Shown here in pieces: positions 3,466 to 59,400 of a DNA stretch of 64,000 nt (the first letter of the stretch is position 1; each line of letters opens with the position of its first letter). This DNA is from Macrostomum lignano (taxonomy: Eukaryota). The notes under the pieces were generated by a model. That model had not been told where the DNA came from. It did not search any database and saw nothing but the letters and a program-made list of their open reading frames with translations. The stretch covers positions 1 through 64,000 of the forward strand of contig NIVC01001591.1 of assembly GCA_002269645.1 (NCBI GenBank). The letters run 5' to 3'. The translations under genes and the position numbers were made by a program.

Positions 3466-5201
3466 ATGTCAGACAAGAAACCAACCGCAGTCCACAAGGC
3501 AGCAATTCTGCTACCTGTTCAAGCTTGGCTGTCGAGCACATCTGCTCACGGATTGAGCCGACTCTCTGGTCAGCGACCAATCTACATCAAACTAATTTGG
3601 CTGCTGGCTTTCACCTCATTCATGACGATCTTTGTCATCCAGGTGCAAGTCTTTGTGAAAAAGTACCATGAAAAGCCGCAGACGACTACCCTACAGGAGG
3701 ACTCGGTGGAGTTCGAGTTCCCGGACCTGGTCATCTGCAGCACGAACATTGTGTCGGGAAGTTATCCCTACCTGCTGGACTCACAACAAGTGTTAGAAAT
3801 CAACAGCTATGTGAATAAAACCAAGGAGATGCTCGGTGAACCTCATCGTGAAGACATGGCCCGCAGTTTTGCCCAATCCCTGACGGCGACTCTGCCTTAT
3901 CGATTGCTGAGTGACAGCTTCGGTCACAAAGCCGACCAGATGGTTATAATAAACTCAATCAACGGATTTGGCGGAGAAAGGGTTCACTTCAGCACCTTCC
4001 ACAGCCCGTCAGAGCTTAACTGTGTCCGCTTCGAGCCCACAGATGAGCAGAGAGAAGCTCTGAGCATTGAGAACAACTTCTTGCACATAATCTTATTTCT
4101 CGATGCCACATTTTACAAGTTTCCAAAGACCTCAAAAATCTCCCGGTGCCTATGAAAGATCAACCTGGTTACGATTTTCTTTCCTGGGATCTTGATGGAG
4201 GTTTGAATTTTCAGGATTCGAATGCTATAAATTTGTACTTCGCTAAACGAGGTCACTACCCGAGTCCTGACTCTGTTCTGCAGCTGAGCTCTGGAAAAGT
4301 GTACACAATTAACCTGGAGATGGAGAAGCTGACACTGTCCAAGGGGATGCAGTGCCTCCCTGATCCTGAGCCCATGAGGATTGTAAGTCCGTACAACGGG
4401 TCCGAGACGGCTTACCAGTACAGCCAGTACCTTTGCCGCTCTGAGAGAATAAACGAGTTGTTGATGGAGCAAAGCGGCTGCGTGAACCACCTGCTGCCGA
4501 GAAGCAAAAGATTCGAAAGCGCCCTCGGATGCATGAACGCTAGCTGGGTTCATGAAAGAAACTTGACGTTGGCCAAATATATTGCGCTTTTAAAGATCTT
4601 CGAATCCATCGATCAAAAGGATATCCAACAGTACTGCAATGAGCGACGCCCCTGCAAAACTTCGAGCTACACTTATGCATATTCTTTCGGTGCCTGGCCT
4701 AGAATTTATTCGACTAATCAAGCCTCAATACTGAATAAAATCTTAGAACTGGTTAATAAATCCAATAAAAAGCATCCCGGATACGTTGACTTGGCGTCTA
4801 TCCTTATGGAGATGCTAGACAACATGACCACGGAACGCAGTCTGATCGCGAGCAACTATATGCAGGACCAGCTGATGCGAATCAAAGTCAAAGCCGGAAA
4901 ATCCTTCGGGCCGACAGTCACAATCGAGCGCAGCTACGAGTTGGCTAACCTCGTGTCGGACACTGGTGGCATTCTGGGCCTCTACATGGGCTGCTCTCTG
5001 CTGACTGTGCTGGAGGTGCTCGAGCTGCTGCACGACTGCCTGCTCGGCTGCTGTTCCGTCGGGACCGGAGCCGTGGCGCCTCGGACAGGCGACGACGAAG
5101 AGGACAAGAACGATCCGGCCGGAAGGGGGACGCGCGTCAATGCGGATGCCAGCGGCAACACTGGATGCCTTAATACTACTTTGGTCGAGCCTTTCGGTTA
5201 G
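3466..5201 (+). CDS. DEG/ENaC (amiloride-sensitive sodium channel family) subunit, intronless, about 578 aa
   Basis: N-terminal STSAHG motif, TM1, FPDLVIC (FPAVTIC-like), Cys-rich ectodomain, TM2 LVSDTGGILGLYMGCSLLTVLE. The two ORFs join with +1 base at TTT 4120-4122 (YKF|SKDLKNLPVPMK); corrected length 1737 nt is a whole number of codons. Confidence 0.9.
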
Positions 5202-6983: not shown

Positions 6984-9102
6984 TCACTCCGGATCGCTCT
7001 CGTACTGATGCATCTGCTTGTAGATATCCTTCAACAGCAGAACCGCTTTCTTCCGGGGCAATGGACGGACGCCGTATTTTCGCAACGACTCGGCCAGTTC
7101 AGGTGTGCTTGACGCTTCGTAGTCGCGCATCGGCGTAAACGGTGAAGGCGAACGTTGTTGGCGACGGTTGCCCGACTTGCGCCTGCTCCACCGCTACCGC
7201 CTCCACCGCCTCGAATGGTTTTAAATCGAAAGCGTTGCTGCTTCTGCTGCTGCTGCTGCGGTTGCGTCTCTTGATTATTATCTATGCGCTGCGTCGCATA
7301 GGATACTGGCAATATACGCGGCGTCGTTGGCAACGGTTGCGACGAGATCCGACGAAATTGAACAGTTGGCGAAGATACCGATTTGACTTTGGTGGAATTT
7401 TTCAATTCACTGGGAGTCAAAGGAACGGGTGTCGGTGGTTAGGTGACACGGGATCTGTGGTGAGAGGCGCGGTTGTCAAAGGCGGTGTTGAAGGATCAGT
7501 AGCTAAGGGCGCGGATGTAAAAGTCAGAGAATCAGACTTTTTCTGTTCAGGCGTCAAAGACGCCGGTATCAACGGATCAGAAACTGGAGGCGCAGGCGTC
7601 GGAGGCTGATCAAAAAAGGACGCCTCGCAAAGGTGATCGCAGGCTGGAACAGAAATCGCTGACAAATTGTTGAAACTGGATCCACAATCAACTTGTTCCT
7701 CGGCAACGCAGTCGTCAATGCCATCGGAATTCTGTTGCTGATTTTCATAATCTTCATCGTCATCGGAAGCGGCAAACAGATCGCAGCAGCTACTGTTATT
7801 GGCATCGGATTTTATTGTCGGTTCAATCTGGGCATCATCGACTGCAGTTGGAACTTCTTTTATAACTGGTTGGCTAGAGACATTGTCGTTTACAACATCG
7901 TCAGCATTACTAACCGGAAACCAGCCGTAAGTCTCTTCCATAATCAAAGAATTTTCGAGTTTACGCCGCTTTTCCGAGTTCGATAGTGCTACATCAGCGT
8001 CTTCATCATCATTGATAGACTCTGAACGACGCTTTTTTGAGATTATGGTTGCATCGACAATAGGACTATCGGAACGCCACGAGGACAGAAGCTGCTTAGC
8101 CGCATCGGAAAGTGGCTCTTCGCCGCCGGAATACAAGAAGTTCAACGAAGAAATCAGATCATCTTTACTGATACCTGTCAAAGGAATTCGACCTTCAGCA
8201 TCCGTGCTTCGATCTAATCGTTGCAAGCATGACAAAGGACAACGAGCGGCAAAGACGAATCGATGCGCTGGAATGATACAGCCATCTGATGATTCGATTA
8301 GAAAATGCAAATCCGCGCATAGTTCGTTCCCGACCATCGATTGGAAATCGGACAAAACTTTATCGATTGTTGGTGCGGTTTCTGAAGTAGCAGTAACAGC
8401 TACAGTTTGCGATTGGTTGGCAAGTTTTACTGGACTCTCCTCAGTAGAGGGTGTAGGCTTATCGACAGATTCAACCGTATCTACTGGAACGGCAGCTACA
8501 GATTCTGTCTTCAACGAATCATCTTCCGCTGCCATACAGACCACGCCGGGCAGCAACTCCAACAGATCCGGTACAAGATAGCGCAATCGCGGCTGCATTT
8601 CAATCGAAGTCAAACGCCACAGATCGCTGCGAACTGTGCCGCTAGCAATTTGAGCCGGCGCATCCGATGCTGGTCGGAGAATTTCTGCAACAGCGGCTAG
8701 AAGTCGTTCCCGTCGAGCCTCCGGAGTGAGTCGGAACACGGACGGCACCGAGGCAACAGCTCGTCGGGTTTCTTCGGCTTCTTTCGCCGCAACTTTACGA
8801 GCAGCTTCGACGCTACGCGACAAAGCCAACGCCGTTTGAAGATCTTCGTCTGCTGCTCGCCGAAGCAACGACTTCAACGAGGGCTCTGGTCGTTGACGAT
8901 TATCCGAGCTATCTATCAAACGCTTCGATTGACGTCGATTTGACGATTCATTGTTAGATTTCTTAGCGCACCTGGCCAGGTGTTGATCTCGACGAGCTTC
9001 CGTCCAGGTGGACAACAAGCGACCGCAAGTTGGACAGCGACCGTCGGCTGTGAGAGGGTCGGCGACGGGTTTGGCCGCTTCAAATGGGAGCTCCGTTTCA
9101 GG
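6984..9102 (-). CDS. SLX4: SLX4/BTBD12-like structure-specific endonuclease scaffold (UBZ4, MLR, BTB, SAP)
   Basis: UBZ4 CPTCGRLLSTWTEARRDQHLARC; MLR-like DEDLQTALALSRS; BTB ADLHFL...IPAHRFVFAARCP; SAP found in a third frame (about 7140-6990): FTPMRDYEASSTPELAESLRKYGVRPLPRKKAVLLLKDIYKQMHQ. Acceptor TTTCAG at 9103. Two +1 corrections (7437-7438; 7140-7195) give 707 codons. First exon not located. Confidence 0.8.
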
Positions 9103-9334
9103 CTGAAAGTGATGCGTATTGTTAAATGACCAATTACTGAATGCATAAATGGTTTGAAATTGCATGCACATAATAAAAGCCTAACACTAATGAGCACATT
9201 CACTATAAGTGAATTCTTGTTCGCAGTCCTCGACTTGCAATACTACACGCACAAGTTTGTTAATACTATTGGTGTAGTTCGGATGCAAAAAGCCTGACTA
9301 TATGCAAGAATAATGGAGGATGGTTCAGTCTGAC

Positions 9335-10098: not shown

Positions 10099-13000
10099 TC
10101 AGTCAAAAACAACAAATTTAGCCACAAAGAAGCCAATAGTGTCATAGTTGCAAGCATTAGTAACGTCGCTAGCATCGTATGGCACTTCCGGATCGAATTT
10201 CTGCACCAAACCGACACTTCCGTCCGGTTGGTAAATACCAAAAGGCCGCAGGTTGGGAGTCTGTTCCACTAGTTTAAGGTTAGGCCAGTTCATCTGCAGA
10301 GCAAGGCTGACCTGCCGTTCGTTTTCTTCTGGTCTTGTTGTGCATGTGCTGTAGACAAGGAACCCGCCAGGCTTAACCAATTTAATGGCCTAAAAATTGG
10401 CAATACACAAATTAATAATAATAATCGATTACACCTGTTTTAATAGGCAGATATGCAACCGACAGCTTAGCCGCAGCTATTGCGCGGCGCATCTGAAGGC
10501 TGCGTACGGCTGTTCAGTCCAAGGACTGCTGGCACCCATTTTACAGCTGGGTGAACTGAAGCAATCCAGAGTCAAGTGTTTTGCTCAAGTCTACAAACTG
10601 TTCCAGTGGAATCGGGAATCGAACCCCCGACCTTCGAGTCGTGAGTCCGACGCTCTAACCACAGGGCTACAACCCCCTAATAATGCAAATCTCGCAGGCA
10701 AATATTAATCAAATTATATTATTAATTTACCTCACGAAACAATCGATTCTGTATTTGAGCATACGAACTCAACTGAGATGCAGTTTTGCTCAACTGACTA
10801 CTACTGTCTGATGACGTGAGTAGTCTAGGCCGCTGTCCCAGAGCGCTGCAGGGTGCATCCAGGAGAACACGATCAAACTGTTTAGGACGATACGGCGGCT
10901 TACTGTCAGGCTCGCCAGCGTCTGTCAAAAAATGATAGTAAATTTTCATCTGCTAATATTGCTACTGACAGTAGCACAGCTTAGACATGAAGATTTAAAT
11001 CAAGATTCAAAAGCCAAACACAGACCTGTTCCGTTATCATCGCACAGTCGACAAGCATCAAAACAATGAATTCGAAGAAAATTTTCGGTGTCAATACCCA
11101 ATTTGACAGCTTGTTCAGCAACTGTGTTTAACCGCTTTGCAGACTTGTCAATGGCGATTAGAGTGCCCTGTGGGAGATCAGGATTCTGTTAGCTCACAGA
11201 AGACTGGGCTAAATTGGGCAAGTGGCGGTGGCACAGCAACTGGGGATCTGGGAGGCTGGTGGCCCAGCAACTGGGGATCTGGGAGGCTGGTGGCCCAGCA
11301 ACTGAGGATCTGGGAGGCTGTCCCAGCAGCTGAGGATCTGGGAGGCTGGCCCAGCAACTGAAGATCTGGGAGGCTGGCCCAGCAACTGAGGATCTGGGAG
11401 GCTGGCACAGCAACTGAAGATCTGGGAGGCTGGTACAGCAACTGAGGATCTGGGAGGCTGGCGACACAGCAACTGAAGATCTGGGAGGCTGGCCCAGCAA
11501 CTGACACTCTGGAAGGCTGGTGGCCCAACAACTAGGGACCAATAAAATAAATAAATAAGTATATAAATTCACTGATAATGAATGAAGTATGGCACTCAAC
11601 CTATACAGCTTATAACTACAAACCTGCAACTGCATAAGGTCAGCCAGGTGCAGACATTTTCCGCCGGGAGCACAGCACATGTCTAGCACTGTCTGCCCAG
11701 GCTGCGCGTCCAATACTCGAGCGCACACCAACGAAGGCAGATTCTGGGCAACCAGATTGCCGGACTGGAACAGGCAGGACTGAAAGCTGGGACACACGAC
11801 TAAGGGTTGCGTCATGCGGACCGCTACACCACTGCGGGAACATTAAGAAGATTAACAATGCCCCTTTAATTATCGCCAAATACACATCAATGCAGTGTTA
11901 CAACCTAAACAACAGAATCTACCACTACAGTCTACAAAATATCTACCCTAAAAACTATACTACAGGCTACCCCGAAACCTACCACTACAATCTACCCCAA
12001 TACCTACCACTAAAATCTACCCCAAAACCTACCACTACATTCTACTCCAATATCTAAACTACAATCTACCCCAATACCTACCACTAAAATCTACCCCAAA
12101 ACCTACCACTACGTTCTACTCCAATACCTACAACTGCAATCTACCCCAATACCTACCACTAAAATCTACCTCAAAATCTACCACTAAAATCTACCCCCAA
12201 ACCTACCACTACATTCTACTCCAATATCTACAACTACAATCTACCCCAAAACCTACCACTACAATCTACCCCAATATCTACCACTACAATCTACCCCAAT
12301 ATCTACCACTACAATCTACCCCAATATCTACCACTACAATCTACCCCAATATCTACCACTACAATCTACCCCAATATCTACCACTACAATCTACCCCAAT
12401 ATCAAGTACTAGTATCTACTTAAATCTCTACTATAGGTATCTACCTGAGAAACCAATCTACCACCTAGAATATCGAAAGTCAGTTTAATTATATGAATTT
12501 ATGAAAGAAGCAGCTATAAAATTTACATTTAATGCATTCAATAAAAATAAAAGAATCAATTCCAAACCTATTTGAATGAATATCTCCAAGCAGCTGCTTC
12601 CGCTCCATCACCAGGAGTCCATTGCCAAGAAATCTAGTAGCTCCTGTGTAGGCTTTAGTGAACCCTGCATTGAATTTTTCTAAACAGGCGTAGACAGACA
12701 CTGGGCAGTCTTTGCTGGCACCTGGAGATCAGAATTATTGTAACTCAATGAGTAAAAAACAAATTGTAATAAAAATGTATGCCAACACTGCCTCATCATG
12801 GAACAGAATTCGAACCTGGCTCAATCCCAATCACTCCGCCGGCAAAAATATCGGATCCGCGAAGAACCGCGACTCCGCACAGAGGATCAACGTACAAGCG
12901 GGGGTGCGTCTGAGGTAGCTGAAATGGAAAACGCGCGCAAAAGTGCATTTTTAAGAGGCTGGTCTAGTAACTGAGGATCTGGGAGGCTGGCCCAGCAACT

Positions 13001-20182: not shown

Positions 20183-20421
20183 ACATCAACCATGCAGCTA
20201 TGAGTAGAGACATGATTGCTGTGTACTTCTTTGATATTAAATAATAAATCAATTTCGATTTGTTAATCTCGACTCTTGAGACACTATACCCAAAAAATTA
20301 CGAGTACATTACCTTCTGTATGTTTATTTCTACAATGAAATAACGAATCGCCTATTAAAATTACCAAAGTTAATCTGCATTCAATTGCTTTTTTTCTCTT
20401 CTTTGGCATGTTGTCAACTTC

Positions 20422-21685
20422 TTAAGCAGGTGATAGCTGCCCTGCTTGCTCCGAATTGTAATTTGTGTTCGATCTTATTCTTATTTCGCCTTTGCTGTCA
20501 TAGTGAGACAAAAAACGTTTCGCGCAAAGTTGGTGGTGTCCTGAAATACACATTGGTGTAGTGTGTGGGTAGAGATTGGGGTAAAGTGTGGGCAGAGATT
20601 GGGGTAGAGTGTGGGCAGAGATTGGGGTAGTGTGAGCAGAGATTGGGTAGAGATTGGGGTAGAGTGTGGGTAGAGATTGGGGTAGAGTGTGGGCAGAGAT
20701 TGGGTAGAGTGTGGGTAGAGAGTGGGGTAGAGTGTGGGTAGAGATTGGGGTAGAGTGTGGGTAGAGATTGGGGTAAAGTATGGGCAGAGATTGGGGTAGT
20801 GTGAGCAGAGATTGGGTAGAGTGTGGGCAGAGATTGGGGTAGAGTGTGGGCAGAGACTGATGTAGAGTGTGGGCAGAGATTGGGGTAGAGTGTGGGTAGA
20901 GATTGGGGTAAAGTATGGGCAGAGATTGGGGTAGTGTGAGCAGAGATTGGGTAGAGTGTGGGCAGAGATTGGGGTAGAGTGTGGGCAGAGATTGGGGTAG
21001 AGTGTGGGCAGAGATTGGGGTAGAGTGTGGACAGAGATTGGGGTAGAGTGTGGGCAGAGATTGGGGTAGAGTGTGGGCAGAGATTGGGGTAGAGTGTGGG
21101 CATGTTATCACAGAGATCTTCCGTTCTTCTAGCCCTGGTCGTAGCCTGCCCTCTAAATTGTCGCTATGGCAGTCAATTGCATTGTCTGTCACAATCTTTT
21201 TCTGCATTTAATGTACCCTCACGATCAGTATTGGAAAATCCTGGACGATCGGTACTTCCTCTTTCACTCTGCGGCCTGTTAAAAAGAGTGACTCAGAAGG
21301 CTGCATCCACGCGTAGTCACATACATTTTGGGTTCATTTGCAAAGTTTGGCGTCGCTAAAAGACCCATGAGAGCCAACAACCAAGACACAAGGTATACAT
21401 GCATGCACACCATGGCCTGCAGGAGGAGAATAGGATGAGAAAGCATCCCTTCTATGAGCTTGCCTGATGAGTTTGTGCGCATATTCGGGTAAAGTAGAAA
21501 GCCTTTGCAAACATAGAACTTAATGCAAGTCCATTAATCTTGTTTAAATTTACACCCTGACACATCCACTGTCAGGCGGTGTAAGCTTCTGGTAGCTGTT
21601 GGATCCGTTAAAATCCAGAAGCTTGTTTGCAAAGGAAAGAAGGATAAGACTGGGTAAACATTTCAAATCCGGCGGCAACTTCGCG
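20422..21685 (-). CDS. Unidentified multi-exon gene (3' exons)
   Basis: Chain of GT-AG-bounded segments 21502-21411, 21355-21325, 21275-21217, 20540-20422 that stays open after splicing (two frames possible), plus a further acceptor near 21686. No recognisable family. Confidence 0.35.
20560..21101. repeat. 23-bp G-rich minisatellite (GGGCAGAGATTGGGGTAGAGTGT)n, left arm
   Basis: About 23 copies; reverse complement of the array at 21968-23983. Confidence 0.95.
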
Positions 21686-21967
21686 CTGGAATGTTGACAG
21701 ACAGCTAAATTGCAATTTAACTTGCTGCTTTTCACACAGAATTTGCTGAGCCTGATTGCTCTGTCCTCCAATAATCCTATCGGTGGAAGTTACAATTACT
21801 TTAACTTCCTCAAGAATAGTTCAAATTATTAAATACTAGTTTTCTCTGACCTGTTTTCTTTATCTATATAGTTTCTCTCGCTTAGTGGATACTGATTATA
21901 ATTGGTAGTTCGCTGCCACCGGGTCCCAGGGTCACAAGTTATCCGAATCTCATGCTTTCAGAGTACA

Positions 21968-23983
21968 AATCTCTGCCCACACTCTACACCAGTCTCTGCC
22001 CACACTCTACCCCAATCTCTGCCCACACTCTACCCCAATCTCTGCCCACACTCTACACCAGTCTCTGCCCACACTCTACCCCAATCTCTGCCCACACTCT
22101 ACCCCAATCTCTGCCCACACTCTACCCCAATCTCTACTCACACTCTACCCCAATCTCTGCCCACACTCTACCCCAATCTCTGCCCACACTCTACCACAAT
22201 CTCTGCCCACACTCTACCCCAATCTCTGCCCACACTCTACCCCAATCTCTGCCCACACTCTACACCAATCTCTGCCCACACTCTACATCAGTCTCTGCCC
22301 ACACTCTACATCAGTCTCTGCCCACACTCTACATCAGTCTCTGCCCACACTCTACACCAATCTCTGCCCACACTCTACCCCAATCTCTGCCCACACTCTA
22401 CCCCAATCTCTGCCCACACTCTACCCCAATCTCTGCCCACACTCTACCCCAATCTCTGCCCACACTCTACATCAGTCTCTGCCCACACTCTACATCAGTC
22501 TCTGCCCACACTCTACATCAGTCTCTGCCCACACTCTACATCAGTCTCTGCCCACACTCTACATCAGTCTCTGCCCACACTCTACATCAATCTCTGCCCA
22601 CACTCTACATCAGTCTCTGCCCACACTCTACATCAGTCTCTGCCCACACTCTACATCAGTCTCTGCCCACACTCTACATCAGTCTCTGCCCACACTCTAC
22701 ATCAGTCTCTGCCCACACTCTACATCAGTCTCTGCCCACACTCTACATCAATCTCTGCCCACACTCTACATCAGTCTCTGCCCACACTCTACATCAGTCT
22801 CTGCCCACACTCTACATCAGTCTCTGCCCACACTCTACATCAGTCTCTGCCCACACTCTACATCAGTCTCTGCCCACACTCTACATCAGTCTCTGCCCAC
22901 ACTCTACATCAGTCTCTGCCCACACTCTACATCAGTCTCTGCCCACACTCTACATCAGTCTCTGCCCACACTCTACCCCAATCTCTGCCCACGCTCTACA
23001 TCAGTCTCTGCCCACACTCTACCCCAATCTCTTCCCACACTCTACCCCAATCTCTGCCCACACTCTACATCAGTCTCTGCCCACACTCTACCCCAATCTC
23101 TGCCCACACTCTACATCAGTCTCTGCCCACACTCTACCCCAATCTCTACCCACACTCTACCCCAATCTCTGCCCACACTCTACCCCAATCTCTGCCCACA
23201 CTCTACCCCAATCTCTGCCCACACTCTACATCAGTCTCTGCCCACACTCTACATCAGTCTCTGCCCACACTCTACATCAGTCTCTGCCCACACTCTACAT
23301 CAGTCTCTGCCCACACTCTACATCAGTCTCTGCCCACACTCTACATCAGTCTCTGCCCACACTCTACATCAGTCTCTGCCCACACTCTACATCAGTCTCT
23401 GCCCACACTCTACATCAGTCTCTGCCCACACTCTACATCAGTCTCTGCCCACACTCTACATCAGTCTCTGCCCACACTCTACATCAGTCTCTGCCCACAC
23501 TCTACATCAGTCTCTGCCCACACTCTACATCAGTCTCTGCCCACACTCTACATCAGTCTCTGCCCACACTCTACATCAGTCTCTGCCCACACTCTACCCC
23601 AATCTCTGCCCACACTCTACATCAGTCTCTGCCCACACTCTACCGCAATCTCTGCCCACACTCTACCCCAATCTCTGCCCACACTCTACATCAGTCTCTG
23701 CCCACACTCTACCCCAATCTCTACCCACACTCTACCCCAATCTCTGCCCACACTCTACATCAGTCTCTGCCCACACTCTACATCAGTCTCTGCCCACACT
23801 CTACATCAGTCTCTGCCCACACTCTACACCAATCTCTGCCCACACTCTACCCCAATCTCTGCCCACACTCTACATCAGTCTCTGCCCACACTCTACCCCA
23901 ATCTCTACCCACACTCTACCCCAATCTCTGCCCACACTCTACATCAGTCTCTGCCCACACTCTACATCAGTCTCTGCCCACGC
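21968..23983. repeat. 23-bp C-rich minisatellite (CTCTGCCCACACTCTACCCCAAT / ...ACATCAGT)n, right arm
   Basis: About 87 copies of two variants; explains the 715-aa and 694-aa ORF calls. Confidence 0.95.
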
Positions 23984-24064
23984 CCACCTCACATGCGGCC
24001 CGCGAAGTCTCTCTATCCGGCCGTCGGTTCCTTTAAAACTTCACAATAGCAATCCGATCCGCTC

Positions 24065-24230: not shown

Positions 24231-24378
24231 AGGGGTGGAGCAATCAATGCAGCGTATTGCTTAAAATATAAAGCAATTGTAATCATGAAAACTTAATCAA
24301 CGAAAAAATTAACCTGGTACTACGTAAGACAAAAATTTTATTTTTCGATCAGATTTAAATAATATTTTAATTCAATTT

Positions 24379-25080
24379 TGTTGGGCTGCGCCCTTCCAGT
24401 GTGTATGTACTCGTACTTTTGTTTTCAGTTTTCATGCCACCCCGCCCCGTCCCCCGTCTCGCGCCCGGGCCAGGGTTTGTGAGAGGCGTAAGTCTCAACC
24501 CTGGCCTAGCCCTTTGCACCCAGCCCCCGGCCCAATCTCTGTCCAATCTGGGTGCCCCCCCCCCTCCCTCGTTGCCCGCCTCACCCTGGGGCTGCTCGTA
24601 TTGGCTGGCTGGCTGATAAGCCGGCTGGGCCCCAGGGTTTGGCTCGCCGTCTCCATTCTGCCCCACCCCTCCCCCTTTTTTGTGTATTATTTAAATGCTA
24701 GCCCTGAGCGGGCTGCGCTCCACGTTTGCTCTCTATTGGTGTCCGCTTCGTTCTTACTGTTTTTGCGTTCATCGGCGTACCTCTGCCTTCGCGTGCCAAT
24801 AACTGCTTCGGGCCAATAAACGCTTCGTTAGTAACTCGATATATCAAGAGGAGGTGAGCTCGAGCTTTCGTTCTTCTGGGTTGCCGCGTGGGGCCGGGAT
24901 CTGCAGGGACCTGGGAACGGTGAACTCTCGCCGATCCCAGGGTGTTCGGTCAGGCGAACTCTCGCCGAACCGAGCGAGACAGGGTAGGAATAGCCGGGGT
25001 GAGGGCTGGGACCGGGGTGTCTCAGGCGGGGAGGGCCCGAACCTTGACCCGTCCAGCGGCCATTAGGCCGAGACACAACA
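24379..25080 (+). repeat. 5' LTR (702 bp)
   Basis: TGTTGGG...CACAACA; AATAAA at 24815-24820. By eye it differs from the 3' LTR only by a 3-nt indel and one C in a homopolymer. Confidence 0.97.
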
Positions 25081-25082
25081 AG

Positions 25083-25100
25083 TGGTGCCGTGACCAGGAT
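25083..25100 (+). promoter_or_regulatory. Primer-binding site, tRNA-His
   Basis: TGGTGCCGTGACCAGGAT, 2 nt after the LTR; its complement ATCCTGGTCACGGCACCA matches the 3' end of eukaryotic tRNA-His (...GTCACGGCA-CCA). Confidence 0.85.
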
Positions 25101-25204
25101 CAGCGGTCCTCTCCCCTGCTGTCCTGCCGTGTGTTTAGGGTTGTGTGTGTTGCCTAGTTTATTTGTGTGTTGTTTGCTTCGGTTGTCTCTGTGTTTTTGT
25201 AGCC

Positions 25205-26185
25205 ATGGCCAATTTAGACGATCTGATTGACGCCCTGACGGCGCGTCTGCAAAACGAACTTAATGTGGCACAGCGGGTGCCGAGGCCAAATAAGTACGTG
25301 CCCACACAGGACTTTGCCCTTTGGATGCAACAATTCACAGGGTATTGTGAGGCGGCTCATATTCTAGGGGATCAGCGCAAGCAGGCGCTGCTCAGTCTGC
25401 TTGACTTTAATACTGCTTTTAAGGCTGTTGCGAATCTTGAGTTGGCCGATGATTTGCCGTATGATGAGTTTGTTGAGCAGCTAGAAGCTAGGTTTGATGA
25501 GAATAGGACTGCTCAAGATTACAAGACCGAGTTCCAGAGTAGGAATCAGAAAGATGGCGAGCCCATTGAAGAATATGCAGACGTGCTCAAGGAGCTTATG
25601 AGAAAATCGTACCCAATGCTGCCAGCGGCCCAGCGAGAAGAGTTGGTGAAAGACAGGTTTTTGAAGGGGATTCGGGTGCCAGCCCGGGTGCTGGAGAGCG
25701 TGCTGCTGCAAGCGCCAGAGACGCTCCAGGACGCTATTAGGCGGGTGCGTCAAGTGAGGGCATCGTTGGCTCTGATGGAGCCTGAGGGTAAGCGAGCTGT
25801 GCACATGGTGGGGGGTCAGGCCGCAGCGGCTGGCAACAGCCAGGAGTCCAGGGCAGCCGCCGAGATAGCAGCTCTGAAAGCGGAAGTGGCTCAGCTAAAA
25901 GCAAGTGCTGCAGCGCCCACTGCGCCGATGGCGACAGCAAGGTCTGAGCAGCCAAAAGTGAGCTTGCAGCATCGAGCCCCTGAGCAGAGTCAGCAGCAGA
26001 GGCAGTGTGGTCGGTGCCTGCAGACAGGGCATACTACGGCTCGGTGCCGTAATGCAGTGGTCTGCCGGGAGTGTGGCCAGTCAGGGCACATGCGCAACCG
26101 CTGCGATCGTCGGTGGGACCAGTCGGGTTCGGGAAACGGATTGGGGGCTCGGCCGGGGCACCCGTCCGGGCCCCAGCGTCAGTGA
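25205..26185 (+). CDS. gag: Gag with two CCHC zinc knuckles
   Basis: ATG at 25205 (GCCATGG context); capsid-like region; CGRCLQTGHTTARC and CRECGQSGHMRNRC. Confidence 0.93.
   Translation: MANLDDLIDALTARLQNELNVAQRVPRPNKYVPTQDFALWMQQFTGYCEAAHILGDQRKQALLSLLDFNTAFKAVANLELADDLPYDEFVEQLEARFDENRTAQDYKTEFQSRNQKDGEPIEEYADVLKELMRKSYPMLPAAQREELVKDRFLKGIRVPARVLESVLLQAPETLQDAIRRVRQVRASLALMEPEGKRAVHMVGGQAAAAGNSQESRAAAEIAALKAEVAQLKASAAAPTAPMATARSEQPKVSLQHRAPEQSQQQRQCGRCLQTGHTTARCRNAVVCRECGQSGHMRNRCDRRWDQSGSGNGLGARPGHPSGPQRQ
26131..26174 (+). promoter_or_regulatory. -1 programmed ribosomal frameshift signal (gag-pol)
   Basis: Heptamer G GGA AAC in gag phase at 26131-26137; about 7 nt downstream a GC-rich stem GGGGCTCGG...CCGGGCCCC with inner CGGG/CCCG. 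pol is in the -1 frame. Confidence 0.85.
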
Positions 26186-29100
26186 ATCCGGGTGCATCGG
26201 GGGCCGCGGCCTTGTCCCAGAGTGTGCTGAGTCGGCAGGGACTGGGCTATGTGGATGCACAGTTTAGGTTTGGGCCCCCGATTGCATGTCTGCTGGACAG
26301 CGGGGCCACCGTGTCGTTGTTAAGCAACCGTTTCCTGAAGTCTAGAAAAGCCGACATTGACTTATCGCCGAATTTGCCGAATTTTTCCGTTTTCGCTGCC
26401 AATGGGGAACCGATTGCTGTACATGGAATGGTGACGATGAAGTTTTCTGTTGGGGACACCGAGTTTTTGCACGAGTTCGCTGTGGTCGAGGAACTGGCTG
26501 TGGCATGTATTCTGGGCACTGACTTTTTCGTGAGACACGGGATGGCGATTGACTTTGCTAGGAATTGCTTGCAGACTGCATCCTGTGTGTATCCGTTTCG
26601 CTTATCAGCAGATAAGCCGCGTCTTTGCCGTCTGGTGCTGAGTCAGCCTGAGCAGTTCAATGCAGGTCAAGAGAAGGTGGTGCACGTCAGGTTGCAGAGA
26701 AGGGTTCCCTCTGGGGTTCAGTTCCTAGGCATTGTGGAGTCTGAGAGGAGAGTGAGTAACGAGCAGATGGTGGCCAGATCGGTACAGATGCCTGACGGGG
26801 ACGGTCGCTTGGCTGTCAGGGTGTTGAACACGTCAGGATGCAGTCTGTCATTAAGGAAGGGAAGCCGAATTGGTTGGTTCTCCCCAGTGGCGGCCCAGCA
26901 GCCAGCTGGGTGGCAGGTGAACTCGGTGGAGAGTGTCCGAGACGACTGGAACCCCCTCAGCGATGTCAAGGAGTGGGGAGGATGTGGCCTGACGGGCGAT
27001 GAGAAGCACGAGTTTGAGCGCCTGATGGCTCGGAATCGTGATGTCTTTGCCAGGGATAGCTCGGAGTTGGGACAGTCACACTTGATGGCGCATGAGATTG
27101 ACACCGGCAACGCCAAGCCAGTAAGTCAGCCCGCGCGTAGGATTCCACCGCGCTGGAAGGAGGAAATTGATAAGCAGGTTGATGAGTTGTTGCAGCAGGA
27201 TCGCATCTATCCCTGCTACTCTCCGTGGGCGAGCCCGATCGTGCCGGTTAAAAAGGCCGACGGTAGCTTGAGGTTGTGTCTAGACTATCGGCGCCTTAAC
27301 GAGGTCACAGTGCCAGATCCTTACCCACCGCCGCGGATGGACGAGACGCTTGATGCGCTAGGAGGGAACTGTGTTTTCTCGACGATGGATCTGGCCTCCG
27401 GCTATCATCAGTGCCCGATTGAGCCGAAGGACCAGTTGAAAACGGCGTTCGTGGTACCCAACAGGGGTCAGTTCGCCTGGAAGTGCATGAGTTTTGGCTT
27501 GCGCAATGCTCCCGCTACGTTCGCCAGGCTAATGTCTATGGCCCTGTCTGAGGTTAACTGGAAGGAGTGCCTGGTGTACTTTGACGATATAGTCGTGTTC
27601 GCCAAGTCGGTGGGTCAGCATCTCGAGCGATTGAAGCATGTTTTCCAGTGCCTGAGGGATGCCAATGTCAAGCTGAAGCCCGCCAAGTGTGTGTTCCTCG
27701 CAGAGCGGGTGAAGTTTCTGGGCCACATCGTCTCTCAGGAGGGGATCGCAACGGACCCGAGCAAGTGCGAGGAGATCCAGAATTGGCCGAGGCCATGTAG
27801 CGCCAAGAAGGTGCAGGCATTCCTGGGTACGTGCGCCTACTATCAGTCATTTATCCCGCAGTTTTCGGAGATTGCAGCGCCGCTGTATAGGTTAACCGCA
27901 GACGGAGTGAAGTTTGAGTGGGGTAGTGAAGAGGAGAGTTCGTTTTGCAGGCTGAAAGACGCTTTGTGTTCACCGAATGTGATGGCATTCCCGGATTTTT
28001 CGCCTGGTGCCGGGGAGTTCATCCTCGACACGGACGCCAGTTCGCGCGTCGGGCTGGGAGCCGTCCTGTCACAGCGTCAAGCAGATGGCCGTGAGAAGGT
28101 GATCGCTTACGGGTCTAGGATGATTCATGCGGCGGAGAAAAATTATTGCACCACCAGGTTAGAGTTGCTTGCCGTCGTGCACTTCGTCAAAAAGTATAGG
28201 TACTATTTGTTAGGTAGAAAGTTCACTGTTCGTTCAGACCACAAAGCTTTGCAGTGGCTAGCCAGTCTGAAGGACGTAGAGGGTCAGTGCGCAAGGTGGC
28301 TTGAGTCGCTCCAGAACTTCGACTTTGAGATCATTCACAGGCCAGGCAAGGAGCACGGCAACGCTGATTCGCTGTCTCGCAAGTACCGAAAACACGCTGG
28401 CCATGAGAGCTGCCCTAGCTGCCAGTTTAGCGAGAATGTGCCAGTAGTGAACGCGGTGTTTGGCAGTGGGCTGTCTTCGAAGGAAGTCCAGCAGGCGCAA
28501 GTGGCCGAGAAGAAGCTTGCAGCTGTCCGCTCCTATGCCCTGGACCCGGGTTCGAACCCCAGTGCGCCTAGAGTGATGTCGTGGGAGGAGCGTGTGCTGT
28601 GGGCACAACGGCAGCTGATAAGAGTAGAGTCTGATCTGTTGTATTTTCAGAGTCCCGGGAGTGGGTGCCAGAAAAAGATCTTGCTGCCGCCGGCTTTGCT
28701 GCCGAAAGTGCTCAGTGAGCTTCATGATGGGGTTGCAGGAGGGCACCTTGGGGTTAGGAAGACACAAGAGAAAGTGAAGGCGAGATACTGGTGGCCGGGG
28801 CTGAGTCGTTCCGTGGAAGAGTATTGCCGGAGCTGTGTCCACTGTGCGAAGGCGAAGCCTGGGCGCAGCAACCGGGCGCCTTTGCAGCCAATCTGCTCGG
28901 AAGGAGCTTTCCAGAGGATCATGAGTGACATTGTCGGGCCGTTGCCCAAGTCCAGAGGTGGCAATCGATTCGTGCTGACAATCCAGGATTCTTTTACTAA
29001 GTGGCCGGTGGCGGTGCCCTTGTCCAATCAGCGAGCCCCGACGGTGGCGCGAGCGATTTTTGATCACTGGATTGCGCACTTTGGTTGTCCTGAATTTCTA

Positions 29101-30068
29101 GTCACCGATAAGGGCACCAATTTTGAGTCGGCTTTGATGAAGCAGTTGTGTCGGTTGCTTGCCGTTAAGAAATGCAGAACGTCCTCCTATCACCCGATGG
29201 CTGATGGTCAGGCTGAGAGTTTCAATAAGACGTTGAAGTCAATGATCAAGTGCAGGATGAGTGAGTCGGTGGGCGAAGGAGACTGGGAGGATCTGATCCA
29301 CCCGTCTCTCATGGCGTACCGTAGCAGCGTTCACAGAGGCACGGGGTACACCCCGTACTACATGCTGTACGCCAGGGAGATGCGGCTTCCAGTGGACATC
29401 GGAACCTTGCCTGAGTCCATTCCTGCCAGTGCTCCGGCGTATGTTCAGTCATTAGGTAATAGTCTGGCTGAGGCTCATTCGCAGGTGCGGACCAACCTGC
29501 AGCAGTACCAGAGGAAACAGAAAGTGCTGTACGACTCAAGGGTGCGAGGCCCGGCCATAGAAGTGGGGATGCCGTCCTAGAATACTCGCCTGCGCTGCAG
29601 GCAGGGGAGGCAGCCAAGTTCCATTGCAATTGGAAGGGGCCGGCGAAGGTGTTAGAGAAGATATCCGATTTGAATTACCGGGTAAAGCACGCCAATAGGG
29701 GAAAGAGCAAAATAGTGCATTATAATAATTTGCGAAAAGTACCCGAGCGGCCTGAGCAGTTCAGGTTGATGAATAGGCATACGGCAGTGCAGCGCCGGTC
29801 GGCGCATCCGCCTGAGCCGGCAGGGTGCAGACAGGAGCCCGCGGGGCCGGCGACTAAAGAGCCGGAACTTGAGGAGGAGGAGGAGTTTTACTCGTATGTG
29901 GTGCCACCAGTTGCCGTTGGGCCTCGGCATGGGATAGTAGGGCCGGGAACGCCAGTTGCGCCATGCGCACCGGTGGCTCCAGCGGCGCCAGCCGTGTCTC
30001 CGCGCAGACTGCGCGAGCGTCGGGGTGTGCCCCCAGCGTATTACGGGAATCCGGTATTGTATCGTTAA
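26131..30068 (+). CDS. pol: Pol polyprotein (protease, RT, RNase H, integrase with GPY/F-like tail)
   Basis: LLDSGAT protease; YFDD RT; FILDTDAS RNase H; HHCC and DDE integrase (IMSD, LVTD, QAESFN). The stop at 29580 is removed by +1 G in the run at 29565-29568, joining WKGP-containing ORF 29649-30068. Confidence 0.95.
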
Positions 30069-30405
30069 TTCGCAGTGGGCTCACAAGGCGGTCGTCATAA
30101 ATTGATTTTTAATATGCACTTGTATTAATGCCTCCACGCTGTTGTCTATGGTAGAAAGCCTAAAATAACCTAAAATGAAAAAAATGATACAACCCCAAAG
30201 CACAAAAAAATCATAAAATGGAACGCATGGAAAGCACGTAAAAAACATTAAATGTATTAAAATTACAAAGTATGCTAGGCAAGAAGCGTTCTCAATCGTA
30301 TTGTAAAATAAACATGTCATAGGATGGGTCAGGTCAGGGTCACAGTTGCTAGTCCGCAAGGCATAGGTAGTGATTGGGTTTAAATGTCATCATTGCAGGA
30401 GGACC

Positions 30406-32081
30406 ATGTCGTCGCCAACGACACCGACTGATTTGTATGGCGTGTTAGGCGTGGGTCGGACTGCTAACTCTGCGGAGATTGAGGCAGCGTGTAGTCGTCT
30501 GTACTCAAAGCGGCCCCGCGTCTGTCCTGCCGAGGTAGAGTCTCCGGAGTCTCAGCGAGACGTGATGGCGATGTGCGTTTTATCTGACCCAGTGTTTCGG
30601 GAAGTATACGATCGGGTTGGGGAGGCAGCGTGTCAAGGGGTGTTAAAGTACGCCTACTTTTTCAATCCTCCCCCTGACGTTGAGTTGCCCGAGCAGGTCA
30701 GGTTAGCTTTGGCTAGTCTTAAGGGAAGCGCCGCAGGGGAAGCTCCAGTTCACGCGGAGATCCCAGCCGAGTTATTGGCTCCGGCTGCGCTTGCTGAGTG
30801 TAGGCGGCTGAGGGGTGCGCTGCTGGCGCGGTTGAGGGCTGGGGATAGTGAAGGAGCTTGCCTGGTGGTTCAGGAGGTGGCGAGGTTTCTTGATGGGGCT
30901 GGTGTGAGTGTGCCTGAGCAGTTGTCTAGATTCTTAGCAGTGTCTGTGTCGTTTCTGTGCAATCAGTATGGGCGGAAGAGAGGTTCTGGTGGTGGCTCCG
31001 GGAGGTGTCGGAGGGTCCCGCCTTCGGTGCTGCAGGCGGCGTTTGAGTGCGTGTTGTTGGCTGTGCGGGGTTTTGAGCTGTGTGAGTTGGGGGGTCCCTT
31101 GTTGGGGAGGCTCCGGGGTCTGTCTCTCTTAGTGGATCCTGGCCTCGCGCGGCGCCCGGAGGAGGGGAGTGACGGGCCGCACCTTTCGCAGACTCCGCTG
31201 ACGGCCCAGCGCGACTTGGCGACCGAAGAGTTAACGGGTGTCGACCCCGAGCAAGTACGACCGGCCGACACGGTCCAGGAGGTCTCCCCCGTGACGACCC
31301 GAATCAGCGCAAGGTCAGCTCGGCTAAGCGTCTCGTCGATGCAAAGGCATACCTAACGAGGCTGGGCCGGTCGATTCAGCCCGAGGACCTTCGTGGCGTG
31401 CGTCGATGTCTAGCGGCTGTAAACTCGCCGTACTGCCTGCGTCTAGAATGTCCCGTTGTCCGACCACTGCTGCAAGACCGACGGATCGTGTTCGCCCTGG
31501 GCCTGAAGGCCAGTGCTGCACCGTGGTGGCCATCGCTGCGAGACGATGTACGACGATTTCTAGCGGGTAGCTGGCCGCGTGTCGTGGCGGTCGGCGAAGT
31601 CGAGCTCAATTGGGACGCTGAGAGGTCGCAGCGCCAGGACCAGTTAACGGCGGCGATGGAGCAGTTCTTGCTTGCCAAGGAGTTCGGCCTGCCGGTTTTG
31701 TTCCGAGTTGAAGGCGGCGAACCTGCCTGGGCGGTCGCCCTAGGATTCCTCCGGCAGCCGGAGTTTCAAGCGATGAGCGTCATGCTGGCCGAGGACCTGG
31801 ACTTGCCGGAGGCCGTCGAGGCCGCGCTGGTGAGCAAGTGCCACGGGGTCTTCTTCGAGGTGTCCGCTCGGTGCCGAGGATCCCCGCGAGCGGTCCAACG
31901 GGCTAAGCGTCTCCCGCGGCAGCGCCTGCTAGTGACATCGGCCGCACCGTTTGGTGGAGACCCCAAGGACCCGACAGCCATCAAGTTCGTGCCGGAAGCC
32001 CTAGCGGACAGTGAATGTGATCGCAGGTACTGGACTCGACTGTTTGCGACCAACTGTAGTAGATTTTTTGGCCGATTGTAG
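30406..32081 (+). CDS. ORF3: degenerate J-domain plus helical linker plus TatD-like TIM barrel (about 558 aa after one +1 correction)
   Basis: DLYGVLGV...EIEAA...VLSDPVFREVYDRVG is J-domain-like. LVDAKAYL, ALGLKAS, VVAVGEVELNW, AKEFGLPVLF, LPRQRLLVTSAAPF, NCSRFF follow the TatD motif order. ATG at 30406 (ACCATG). Frames join with +1 C at 31286-31290. Confidence 0.8.
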
Positions 32082-32309
32082 AGTAGAATTGCGTTCTTAA
32101 GCCCGTTTTCAATCTTTGCGTACGCAATAGTTTGTGTCCCGTTTTCATTTTTTCGTTTTTGTTTTTTGTAATGCCGGCGATATCCACGCGTCGCGTCAAA
32201 GTTTTTCTGTTATTTTTCGGCCGTCGTTTTTTGAATTAACTTTTTTTCAGACTTGCTTGTTCATGCGTTGCTTTTTGCTTGACATCCCCTTTCTCCTCTT
32301 CTTTTTCGT

Positions 32310-32321
32310 GGAGGGGGAGGA
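32310..32321 (+). promoter_or_regulatory. Polypurine tract
   Basis: GGAGGGGGAGGA immediately before the 3' LTR. Confidence 0.9.
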
Positions 32322-33019
32322 TGTTGGGCTGCGCCCTTCCAGTGTGTATGTCGTACTTTTGTTTTCAGTTTTCATGCCACCCCGCCCCGTCCCCCGTCTC
32401 GCGCCCGGGCCAGGGTTTGTGAGAGGCGTAAGTCTCAACCCTGGCCTAGCCCTTTGCACCCAGCCCCCGGCCCAATCTCTGTCCAATCTGGGTGCCCCCC
32501 CCCTCCCTCGTTGCCCGCCTCACCCTGGGGCTGCTCGTATTGGCTGGCTGGCTGATAAGCCGGCTGGGCCCCAGGGTTTGGCTCGCCGTCTCCATTCTGC
32601 CCCACCCCTCCCCCTTTTTTGTGTATTATTTAAATGCTAGCCCTGAGCGGGCTGCGCTCCACGTTTGCTCTCTATTGGTGTCCGCTTCGTTCTTACTGTT
32701 TTTGCGTTCATCGGCGTACCTCTGCCTTCGCGTGCCAATAACTGCTTCGGGCCAATAAACGCTTCGTTAGTAACTCGATATATCAAGAGGAGGTGAGCTC
32801 GAGCTTTCGTTCTTCTGGGTTGCCGCGTGGGGCCGGGATCTGCAGGGACCTGGGAACGGTGAACTCTCGCCGATCCCAGGGTGTTCGGTCAGGCGAACTC
32901 TCGCCGAACCGAGCGAGACAGGGTAGGAATAGCCGGGGTGAGGGCTGGGACCGGGGTGTCTCAGGCGGGGAGGGCCCGAACCTTGACCCGTCCAGCGGCC
33001 ATTAGGCCGAGACACAACA
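32322..33019 (+). repeat. 3' LTR (698 bp)
   Basis: Near-identical copy of 24379-25080. Confidence 0.97.
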
Positions 33020-33438
33020 ATTTTGACTAATTTCTCTCTATCTCAGTTGAAGATCCTTGAAACCTGTAGGTAAGGTAGTTTGAAATTCTTTTAACAAAAA
33101 ATTGACGATAAAAAATGAAAAATCATGCTGTATGAGTTGGCTATAGCTTCCAATCAGGAAATTCAGTAAAACAAATATTACCCGCACAAGCATTGAACAA
33201 TTTCCGGTCGTGACACAGAAAATTAATCATTGTTTATAAAACCCTAAACTGAAAAAAAAATATTCTCCCACACCAAAAATATATATTTGATTCAAACTGG
33301 TAGCTTCAAATATCGAAATTACAGTAAATAGCAAAACTTGAGTTACCAGCTGACAGTTCAACGTGGCAATGACCTGCAATTTCATTATATGGACAATAGT
33401 TTTATTGGCTGGCAGAGAGTCTAACGCTTATCCTGCAG

Positions 33439-56493: not shown

Positions 56494-59400
56494 TTAAACC
56501 AATCCGTTGCCGTTGCTACGGTCAACTTGTTGCTTAGTAACCACCAGAGACGTAGCATTCCTAGCAACCATCCTAGCTTCGTCATCAACGTTGCCGTTGT
56601 CTCGATCAGCCTGATCCTCTGCATCAATGACGGCCTGATCGCGGAGTCGAATGCGCCTTGGCGGCCCGCTGACCACCAGGTCATCGTCCACTTCGCCTGA
56701 GCATTCGACATCCAATTGTTCTTCATCAATCTCAGCGCTGCCGGCTGCAGCATCCCCGTTGCAGCCGCTGACTGACAGAGATTGAGCCGCAGCCGCCGTT
56801 AACGTGGACATTGCCGAGTGCACCGCCGCCGCGGCCACTCCGGCACCCAGAGCGACGCCTCCAAGTACGTCGCTCCAATGGTGTTTATAGTCTGACACCC
56901 GACTGTAGCCGACACAGAGGCCAATAAGGATTAGGAACAGCTGGGCACCGAATCTGCAGGTGTTGTCATTGGAAACAATTAAAATATACTAATTTTAGTT
57001 ACTAAATACGCTGAAATGGCGCCAAAATGAGTGTCAGTTGGGGCGCCAAAATGAGTGTCAGTAGTTATCTACGGGCGCCAAAATGAGTGTCAGTAGTTAG
57101 TAGGGGCGCCAAAATGAGTGTCAGTAGTTAGTAGGGGCACCAAAATAAGTGTCAGTAGGGGCGCCAAAATGAGTGTCAGTAGTTAGTAGGGGAGCCAAAA
57201 TGAGTGTCAGTTGGGGCGCCAAAATGAGTGTCGTAGTTAGTAGGGGCGCCGAAATAAGTGTCAGTAGGGGCGCCAAAATGACTGTCAGTAGTTAGTCGAG
57301 GCGCCAAAATGAGTGTCGTAGTTAGTAGGGGCGCCGAAATAAGTGTCAGTAGGGGCGCCAAAATGACTGCCAGTAGTTAGTCGGGGCGCCAAAATAAGTG
57401 TCAGTAGTTAGTAGGGGCGTCAAAATGAGTGTCAGTAGTTAGTAGGGGCGCCAAAATAAGTGTCAGTTGGGGCGCCAAAATGAGTGTCAGTAGTTAGTAA
57501 GGGCGCCAAAATAAGTGTCAGTAGGGGAGCCAAAATGAGTGTCAGTAGGGGCGCCAAAATGAGTGTCAGTAGGGGCGCCAAAATGAGTGTCAGTAGTCAG
57601 TAGGGGCGCCAAAATGAGTGTCAGTAGTTAGTAGGGGAGCCAAAATGAGTGTCAGTAGGGGCGCCAAAATGAGTGTCAGTAGTTAGTAGGGGCGCCAAAA
57701 TAAGTGTCAGTTGGGGCGCCAAAATGAGTGTCAGTAGTTAGTAAGGGCGCCAAAATAAGTGTCAGTAGGGGCGCCAAAATGAGTGTCAGTAGTTAGTAGG
57801 GGCGCCAAAATGTGTGAGTAGTTAGTAGGGGCGCCAAAATGAGTGTCAGTAGGGGCGCCAAAATGAGTGTCAGTAGAGGCGCCAAAATGAGTGTCAGTAG
57901 AGGCGCAAAAATGAGTGTCAGATGGGGCGCCAAAATGAGTGTCAGTAGAGGCGCCAAAATGAGTGTCAGTTGGGGCGCCAAAATGAGTGTCAGTTGGGGC
58001 GCCAAAATCCGCGACACAAAGAACCGAACTTTTCTCTCTGAAAAGACACTATTCCAAATCTCAGCTCCTTTCATTTTGACTCATTAATATTACTCAAGTC
58101 AGCCTGTTTCATCCATAACTGAGATCGATTTCCTGGAGACTATGCGCAATCATGATGAACCGAACTGGTACACGTAGTAATGTTATAAAATGTATAATGT
58201 TGTTATACATCATTATAATGAAATTTACAAGCCAATCAATATTGCTGTTACATGTTAAACATAAAGCGATCGAATATGCCAATTTGTGTCGCAGGAAGGA
58301 TCGGATGAAAAGGGACAGGCAGACTAATAATTCAACATTATCAGGAATTATCAGGAATATTTTCTGTTCTATTCTCTCTGATATGATAATTTCACCAAGA
58401 GAATCTCACCCCTTTTCTCTGATAAACTCACCAAGAGAATCTCACCGGCTTATCTGATAATATTACCAAGAGAATCCCACCCGTTTCTCCTATAATCTCA
58501 CCCTTTTTCTCTGATAATCTCACCGGCTTATCTGATAATCTTACCAAGAGAATCTCACCCGTTTCTCCTATAATCTCACCCTTTTTCTCTGAGAATCTCA
58601 CCGGCTTATCTGATAATCGTACCAAGAGAATCCCACCCGTTTCTCCTATAATCTCACTCTTTTTCTCTGATAATCTCACCGGCTTATCTGATATTCTTAC
58701 CAAGAGAATCTCACCCGTTTCTCCTATAATCTCACCCCTTTTCTCTGATAATCTCACCGGCTTATCCGATATTCTTACCAAGAGAATCCCACCCGTTTCT
58801 CCTATAATCTCACCCCTTTTCTCTGATAATCTCACCGGCTTATCCGATATTCTTACCAAGAGAATCTCACCCCTTTTCTCTGATAAACTCACCAAGAGAA
58901 TCTCACCCGTTTCTATGATAGCCTCACCAAAAGAATCTCAATCCTTTTCTCTGATCTCACAAAGAGAATCTCGCCGTTTCTCCGATAATCTCACCAACAA
59001 AATTTCACTAGTTTTTCTGATAATCTCACTCGAGAGAGACTTATAGACCAATGATAATCTCAATCAGGAGAATCTTACACCTCTGATAATCTCACTCAGG
59101 AGAATCTTGAATTGTTATAATTCTCTCGGGCTCACCTGGCAGCGGGGCAGCCTCCGAGCTTCATGTGCAAATAGCCAGCCAAAAACACAACAACAAACAG
59201 ACTGTAGGACGTGTGGCCGCTAGGAAACGACATTTGAGCATCTTTAAACTCCCATTTCGACATAGTTGGCCGACAAATCGACACGGGATAAGAGACGCTG
59301 GAATTGCACAGATCGCCGAGAATGTCAGGATCTGGTTTGCAGGCCTCAAGGAAGTAGGGCCGGTGCCTGCCCAGAGCCAGTTTGGCACTGACTGTCAGCA

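Follow-up and report, generated by a model that had tools for sequence, protein, structure and literature searches.

A non-env third open reading frame built on J and helical domains in a Ty3/Gypsy retrotransposon lineage of Macrostomum lignano

The retrotransposon and its third open reading frame

The window analysed here, a 64,000-nucleotide stretch of the Macrostomum lignano genome (contig NIVC01001591.1, assembly GCA_002269645.1), holds one complete Ty3/Gypsy LTR retrotransposon at 24379-33019, with all of its directional features on the plus strand. The element is bounded by a 4-bp target-site duplication (left copy 24375..24378, right copy 33020-33023), and comparison of the LTR pair delimited a 5' LTR of 702 bp (24379..25080) and a 3' LTR of 698 bp (32322..33019), both with TG...CA ends, which show 0 substitutions over 699 aligned positions and two small gaps. 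The primer-binding site (25083..25100), which we take to be of the tRNA-His type, is identical in L053, a locus of the related family B, and the polypurine tract (PPT) occupies 32310..32321. Pfam searches identified gag with CCHC knuckles (25205..26185) and, after it, pol with the Gypsy domain order PR-RT-RH-IN (26053..30068); a slippery heptamer read from the sequence (26131-26137) leads into the pol frame at -1. The first-pass annotation of this DNA had called a young Gypsy element, and the unsubstituted LTR pair, the target-site duplication, the priming sites and the order of the genes bear this out.

In the window copy, a frameshift near 29560-29580 breaks the C-terminal part of the integrase; the integrase tail is open in 10 of the 19 loci scored. 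When the region 3' of pol was used as a DNA query, 29 matches were obtained in the genome, 21 of them longer than 1,200 nt at 94-100% identity. Since the M. lignano assembly is described as redundant in the accessible text of PMC12801592, these 21 long matches are not 21 independent insertions. LTR motifs given for the species in that paper have exact matches in this genome. In run X2, one contig omits the whole element (window 24380-33033), which suggests that the insertion is polymorphic and that an empty allele exists. The element is flanked by long minisatellites (approximately 20400-24000 and from approximately 36000), whose units measure 23 and 20 nt. Elsewhere in the window, four frames resemble host genes by eye, presumably encoding a DEG/ENaC channel (3457-5198, plus strand), a zinc-finger repair protein (7420-9180, minus strand), an RNA m5C methyltransferase (11192-11842, minus strand) and a lipid phosphatase (59135-59815, minus strand).

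Between pol and the PPT, on the sense strand, lies a third ORF (ORF3), which starts at 30406; its TatD frame runs to 32081. The window copy is split into two overlapping frames by a frameshift near 31280-31295. An uninterrupted ORF3 of 558 codons is present at 9 of the 19 other loci, which confirms the ORF of about 558 aa first proposed from the window; nine further loci are broken at varied places and one was left unparsed. The window's break is missing from the contigs of all four public runs, which show the majority form and read through, and the window's 302-codon 3' frame is also found at two other loci; either an assembly error that recurs or a genuine lesion common to these copies could account for this. 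The protein analyses of the window's family (family A) were carried out with the uninterrupted copy P0002. From its N-terminus, ORF3 encodes a J-like domain (residues 9-69; 30430..30612) recognised by Pfam, alignments and structure and profile matches, a five-helix domain with a basic loop (30766..31143), a low-confidence linker that holds the window frameshift (31144..31316), and a TatD-fold barrel (31317..32081).

Third ORFs are usually made from spliced subgenomic RNA. In the window, a splice-donor-like site in the 5' LTR (24851..24859, exon end at 24853) is the putative donor for ORF3, and a splice-acceptor-like site (30384..30398) ends 7 nt before the ORF3 start codon. The public gene model P0005 joins the LTR donor to the ORF3 acceptor at 30398, and gene models P0001 and P0003 use the same acceptor. 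A YAG stands 1-31 nt ahead of the J motif in all eight families that carry ORF3 (within 6 nt in six of them), and the LTRs of family B1 contain a canonical donor, at a depth similar to that of the family A donor-like site. Because family B2 lacks any in-frame ATG upstream of the J motif, either splicing or initiation at a non-ATG codon is required there. These signals suggest that ORF3 would be made from a spliced subgenomic RNA, joining the LTR donor to an acceptor just 5' of the ORF. No donor-acceptor joint was found in the contigs of the four runs covering ORF3, none of which is on record as RNA. Contig breaks near 24850 were rejected as splicing evidence because they are present in a DNA-type run too.

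Domains of the ORF3 protein

The N-terminus of ORF3 had been read as a J-domain, and a J-like domain is indeed supported by profile and structure matches, but the window's piece lacks the HPD motif and matches Pfam DnaJ below the cut-off of 27.8 (E 0.0011, 19.4 bits). The J-domain score is 18-19 bits in the window's family and 45-65 bits, above the 27.8 cut-off (PF00226), in its sister families. The HPD motif is missing in family A and present in all seven aligned sister-family representatives; one other B1-type copy, L050, has RPD instead. A family profile matched DNAJB6, DNAJB2 and Ydj1 at about E 1e-20. Because the HPD motif is absent, plain recruitment of Hsp70 by the family A protein appears doubtful. 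ORF3 resembles the class C J-domain (Hsp40) co-chaperones in joining an N-terminal J-domain to unrelated client-binding domains, and differs from them in being encoded by a transposon, in having lost HPD in the window's family and in carrying a helical domain without known relative.

The five-helix domain between the J-like domain and the barrel, which the first-pass annotation had missed, was modelled with a pLDDT of 88.7 when folded alone. All seven complete helical domains have a basic loop with 5-7 K/R. The fold search returned no clear relative for this domain (best Z 8.6, to generic helical bundles), and Foldseek against PDB and BFVD gave no match at E 0.001 or better.

For the C-terminal part, the structure model, built from element sequences only, predicted a TatD-type barrel at residues 316-558 (Z 22.5, rmsd 2.6 A, 229 residues aligned). 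Eight TatD structures matched at Z 19.7-22.5, other amidohydrolases at about 15 or less, and Foldseek also returned TatD (E 5.4e-07), so that structure prediction and fold search agree on the fold proposed earlier. With Pfam, the window's piece matched TatD_DNase at E 1.3e-05 and 25.2 bits, below the cut-off of 27; profile searches thus left both DnaJ and TatD_DNase under their cut-offs in the window, while sister families B1 and B2 passed both.

According to the accessible part of PMC10085689, the TatD active site comprises an N-terminal HxH or (G/A)xN and, in TATDN1, the phosphate-binding H77, the metal-bridging E112, the metal-binding H149 and H174, and D222, the ETD Asp. Mapped by sequence alignment with bacterial TatDs, family A keeps one of the seven canonical active-site residues (HxH counted as two), namely the equivalent of the central metal-bridging E112. 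The equivalents of H77, H149, H174 and D222 are replaced in families A and B; of the HxH, neither His is left in family A and one in family B, and some family A replacements at the metal site are Arg or Lys. The earlier statement that every TatD barrel motif is present in order therefore holds for the scaffold and fails for the active-site residues. The E112-equivalent Glu is invariant across all six aligned element TatD pieces, and so are two new Glu. In human TATDN1, of the metal ligands, only the single loss of E112 strongly cut both activities, and the single mutants H149A, H174A and D222A had little effect; TatD proteins are also described as binding DNA ends (PMC10085689, accessible part).

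Since one of seven active-site residues is left, plain nuclease activity of the family A protein seems doubtful. A rebuilt active site is possible on these alignments, and we consider that the element barrel is probably not a nuclease and may serve for binding only. Like the TatD/TATDN nucleases (PF01026), ORF3 has the full TatD barrel with the central Glu; unlike them, it is encoded by a retroelement, has the barrel fused behind J and helical domains and, in family A, has six of the seven residues replaced.

The host genome has its own TatD genes. L055 and L056 are TATDN1-like and TATDN3-like genes with introns and with catalytic motifs in the exons read, and no TATDN2-like host gene was found among 21 matches. 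These host genes are far from the element TatD in sequence. Bacterial TatDs outscored the host exons against the element TatD profile, in a comparison of pre-selected bacterial matches with partial host genes; among solved structures the gap was small (YjjV 38 bits, human TATDN1 25).

Related families, inheritance and selection

With the TatD part as genome query, 39 matches were obtained from 48 candidates, including families at 32-45% identity. Families B1 and B2 carry J, helical and TatD domains behind the integrase tail and have HPD intact; their pol is 54% identical to the window pol, and all B copies examined are interrupted or partly deleted. Among the remaining loci, L051 has no pol match, L054 a TatD piece only and L074 no element sequence. 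L052 and L045, on the same contig, are 95% identical to L053 in RT and 67% in the TatD part, with dS rising from 0.12 in RT to 0.37 in RNase H, and are likely, on these values, a recombinant between B subfamilies. Next to the B2 element, L052:4371-5627 (minus strand) holds an ORF of 419 codons with an rve integrase core. This ORF, which also has a weak match of phospholipase A2 type, looks like another type of mobile element.

J-domain ORFs were found about 2 kb behind RTs of 56-61% identity on many contigs among the candidates scored (150 of 226 in the search with the B2 J-domain, 98 of 5,386 in the RT search). Five further families, C-G, each represented by one copy picked for a J match, all have a J-domain with HPD (48-65 bits in Pfam), together with an acidic linker and the helical domain, which is cut short in the family G copy. 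Their ORF3 lies between the pol end and a PPT-like tract, and the integrase tail was detected in two of the five by tblastn and in a third by eye. None of the five copies has TatD, which is thus present in three of the eight families (A, B1 and B2). Across the eight families, whose RTs are 57-66% identical, ORF3 has a common core of J-domain, mostly acidic linker and five-helix domain with basic loop, and the other modules are optional.

In family E the optional module is a chromodomain, placed inside ORF3 between the linker and the helical domain (Pfam 47.7 bits, cut-off 25.1); its nearest solved structures are Swi6 and HP1. At what we take to be the aromatic-cage positions, two aromatics are retained and the third is Val. 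The domain lies at L059:1150-1350 (minus strand) in the one copy read, and about 20 loci have open frames of similar length. Chromoviruses are Ty3/Gypsy elements with a chromodomain as integrase tail; in family E, by contrast, the chromodomain is in the separate ORF3 and not on the integrase.

Phylogenetic analysis of RT grouped family A with its sister family, B1 and B2 at 99/97, within a J-bearing group at 88/94. Trees of the J and helical domains of ORF3 gave the same main split of A and B from C-G, at the moderate and unstarred supports of 86/94 and 90/95. Judged by these trees, ORF3 is inherited along with RT. On midpoint rooting, the J and helical domains would be ancestral, TatD would have been added once and HPD would have been lost in family A. 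The first-pass annotation had suggested that the J/TatD fusion may define a lineage. That suggestion is not upheld: the lineage-defining unit would instead be the J plus helical domain shared by eight families, with TatD a later addition in one sub-clade and a chromodomain in family E.

The expectation that ORF3 travels with this RT clade holds for the eight families and fails in the closest sister family of A. In that family (80% RT identity), ORF3 is absent in both copies with an intact 3' region, and an unrelated stretch occupies its position. A 247-codon open frame without Pfam match was read there at L062:2106-2846 (minus strand), and part of the frame is left in the second copy, L075 (minus strand). 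Since this family has spread without ORF3, the gene is, by this comparison, dispensable and can be lost.

The window RT groups with the locus of the Gmr1/Osvaldo family Mlig-id38 at 96/96, in a tree with one reference per cluster and two long-branched outgroups; its identity is 52% to Mlig-id38 and 33-35% to the CsRN1 and Mag families of PMC12801592. The element thereby resembles the M. lignano Gmr1/Osvaldo cluster in the accessible text of that paper, and differs from the elements described there in not being Mlig-id38 and in having no canonical heat-shock element. A link to the heat-induced families was rejected on that account and because its LTR is unlike that of Mlig-id38. The examples for which genomic context is available all belong to a single genome.

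Selection was assessed with dN/dS by the Nei-Gojobori method, with the A-versus-B rows saturated and the 'mid helical' row (33 codons) dropped for poor alignment. Between B1 and B2, dN/dS was 0.10 for the J part and 0.13-0.14 for the helical and TatD parts, at dS values of 1.7-1.9 that are near saturation. Values were 0.28-0.33 among family A copies and 0.19-0.37 within B1, and one pair within a subfamily, L053 versus L042, gave 0.81 on 16 differences; pol in family B gave 0.20-0.21. Because these values are low, the codon comparisons place ORF3 under purifying selection and rule out a neutral passenger, and we hold it very likely that ORF3 is a selected accessory gene.

Comparison with known systems and possible role

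A phmmer search of 1.84 billion representatives gave 14 matches, consisting of three Macrostomum gene models of family A, P0004 (51% identity) and 10 ordinary TatD or DnaJ proteins (30-44%). P0004 is a 166-aa TatD-like piece on a 1.2-kb public contig that matches no family seen in this genome, and its active-site residues are replaced over the part covered. Word-index searches returned only Macrostomum entries or no match, no relative was found among 598 pattern matches in metagenome contigs, and the protein atlas gave no usable match. The libraries are weak for animal transposons, and these searches do not show that ORF3 is restricted to Macrostomum. The public Macrostomum entries P0001, P0003, P0005, P0040 and P0041 are chimeric gene models with element pieces, and several Macrostomum entries named 'J domain-containing protein' are pieces of these elements rather than host chaperones.

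In the openly accessible papers searched, no description of the J/TatD ORF3 architecture was found; the earlier impression that the fusion is undescribed agrees with this. The accompanying remark that extra ORFs at this position are usually env-like understates the precedent. Bdelloid rotifer elements, Juno and Vesta, carry non-env ORF3s with a DEDDy exonuclease and a GDSL esterase (PMC5408684, accessible part). As described there, these elements are likewise animal and Ty3/Gypsy-like, their ORF3s are sense-oriented, placed after pol and built on a captured cellular enzyme fold, and the products have no membrane anchors, are family-specific and can hold two modules per ORF. The bdelloid ORF3s retain catalytic residues, for example those of a 3'-5' exonuclease, whereas the M. 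lignano TatD has most ligands replaced; and they show no significant departure from neutrality within genomes, whereas the M. lignano ORF3 is under purifying selection with a constant J and helical core. The accessible part of PMC5408684 has no mention of DnaJ or TatD. Plant LTR retrotransposons, too, have conserved additional ORFs, located downstream of pol and ahead of the 3' LTR; some are nuclear, and an accessory role has been proposed, but the ORFs are mostly antisense and without known domains (PMC7264820, accessible part). DnaJ and TatD are not mentioned in the accessible part of that review, nor are DnaJ, TatD or ORF in the accessible main text of the M. lignano LTR paper (PMC12801592). 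A captured non-env ORF3 is thus already known as a kind, and the variant with J, helical domain and module appears undescribed.

J-domain proteins bring clients to Hsp70, with client choice resting on their remaining domains. On this pattern, the ancestral ORF3 protein would be a J-domain adaptor, in which the HPD-bearing J-domain hands a client to host Hsp70 while the helical domain and the added module pick that client. The modules may point to chromatin or nucleic acid, as an HP1-like chromodomain in family E and a TatD barrel in A, B1 and B2 that would most likely bind rather than cut. Since chromatin or nucleic acid is the target suggested by both of these readers, we favour a role in countering host silencing or surveillance, in which the protein would most likely loosen or block the host complexes responsible on the DNA or RNA of the element. 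The family A protein, having lost HPD, would probably not stimulate Hsp70 itself and would serve as a scaffold for binding or as a decoy. One precedent is provided by plant J-domain proteins that belong to methyl-DNA reader complexes. Another is the occurrence of inactive nucleases in piRNA pathways (PMC5408684, accessible part). From the domain content, we put a non-env ORF3 acting as a counter-silencing Hsp70 adaptor at nucleic-acid or chromatin targets slightly short of an even chance.

Other explanations of ORF3 were weighed against this one. The protein might be a private co-chaperone through which Gag or Pol obtains Hsp70 for assembling particles, activating RT or uncoating, with TatD holding or shielding cDNA ends. 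HPD is intact in seven of the eight families, with the J-domain as the constant part, and viral precedents include the J-domains of polyomavirus T antigen and pestivirus Jiv and the dependence of hepadnavirus RT on Hsp40/Hsp70; the reported binding of DNA ends by TatD proteins also fits (PMC10085689, accessible part). This explanation leaves the HP1-like chromodomain of family E unaccounted for, and it sits poorly with family A, which lost HPD and yet has many near-identical young copies, and with the sister family lacking ORF3; we regard it as unlikely though worth serious attention. Somewhat more improbable is an active TatD nuclease with a rebuilt acidic metal site, which would trim cDNA or RNA ends or degrade small RNAs in the manner of the bdelloid DEDDy ORF3s. 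The essential bridging Glu and two further Glu are invariant in all six pieces, the modelled barrel is complete and under purifying selection, in human TATDN1 a His or Asp ligand can be lost singly at little cost (PMC10085689, accessible part), and nuclease ORF3s exist in rotifers (PMC5408684, accessible part). Against it, family A has substitutions at six of the seven canonical residues at once, including Arg or Lys at the metal site, and five of the eight families lack TatD altogether.

If ORF3 were a one-off transduced host gene fragment decaying as a passenger, the frameshifts in the window, and in roughly half the other loci as well, would fit, as would the loss of HPD and catalytic residues and the gene-free sister family; however, eight families with RTs 57-66% identical carry it, dN/dS is 0.10-0.33 in most comparisons, and the TatD genes of the host contain introns, retain catalytic motifs and are distant from the element TatD. 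Taken together, dN/dS, the further families and the RT tree largely refute the passenger reading, which we consider very improbable. An unusual env or cell-to-cell fusion protein would suit the env position and the inferred spliced expression. The first-pass annotation had seen neither a signal peptide nor a transmembrane anchor in ORF3, and hydropathy agrees: no transmembrane-like stretch or hydrophobic N-terminus was found in any of the eight ORFs or pieces (19-residue hydropathy, maximum 1.49), no viral fusion protein or env family appeared among the Pfam and structure-search matches to ORF3, and the folds are of cytosolic or nuclear types, so that we give this explanation hardly any weight. 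ORF3 is best read as a clade-wide accessory gene and not an envelope gene, and its clade-wide presence, the trees, hydropathy and dN/dS agree with the original proposal of a captured accessory gene and mark it as maintained and non-env.

Returning to the counter-silencing adaptor, its fullest form is that an LTR lineage encodes a modular Hsp70 adaptor whose swappable readers target silenced chromatin or element nucleic acids and which dismantles host silencing complexes; we put this forward tentatively, as a possibility with clearly less than even support. If true, it would be a retrotransposon-encoded counter-silencing factor acting via the chaperone system. In the literature searched, animal LTR retrotransposons with accessory genes other than env are rare, and the lineage bears on the question of how animal transposons counter host silencing. 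It contributes a likely pseudo-enzyme of the TatD type, together with a well-folded helical domain for which no relatives are known. It also provides a natural comparison series in one genome, with eight families that share the J core and differ in their modules, one of them without HPD and a sister without the gene, in an animal used for transgenesis and stem-cell biology (PMC12801592, accessible text).
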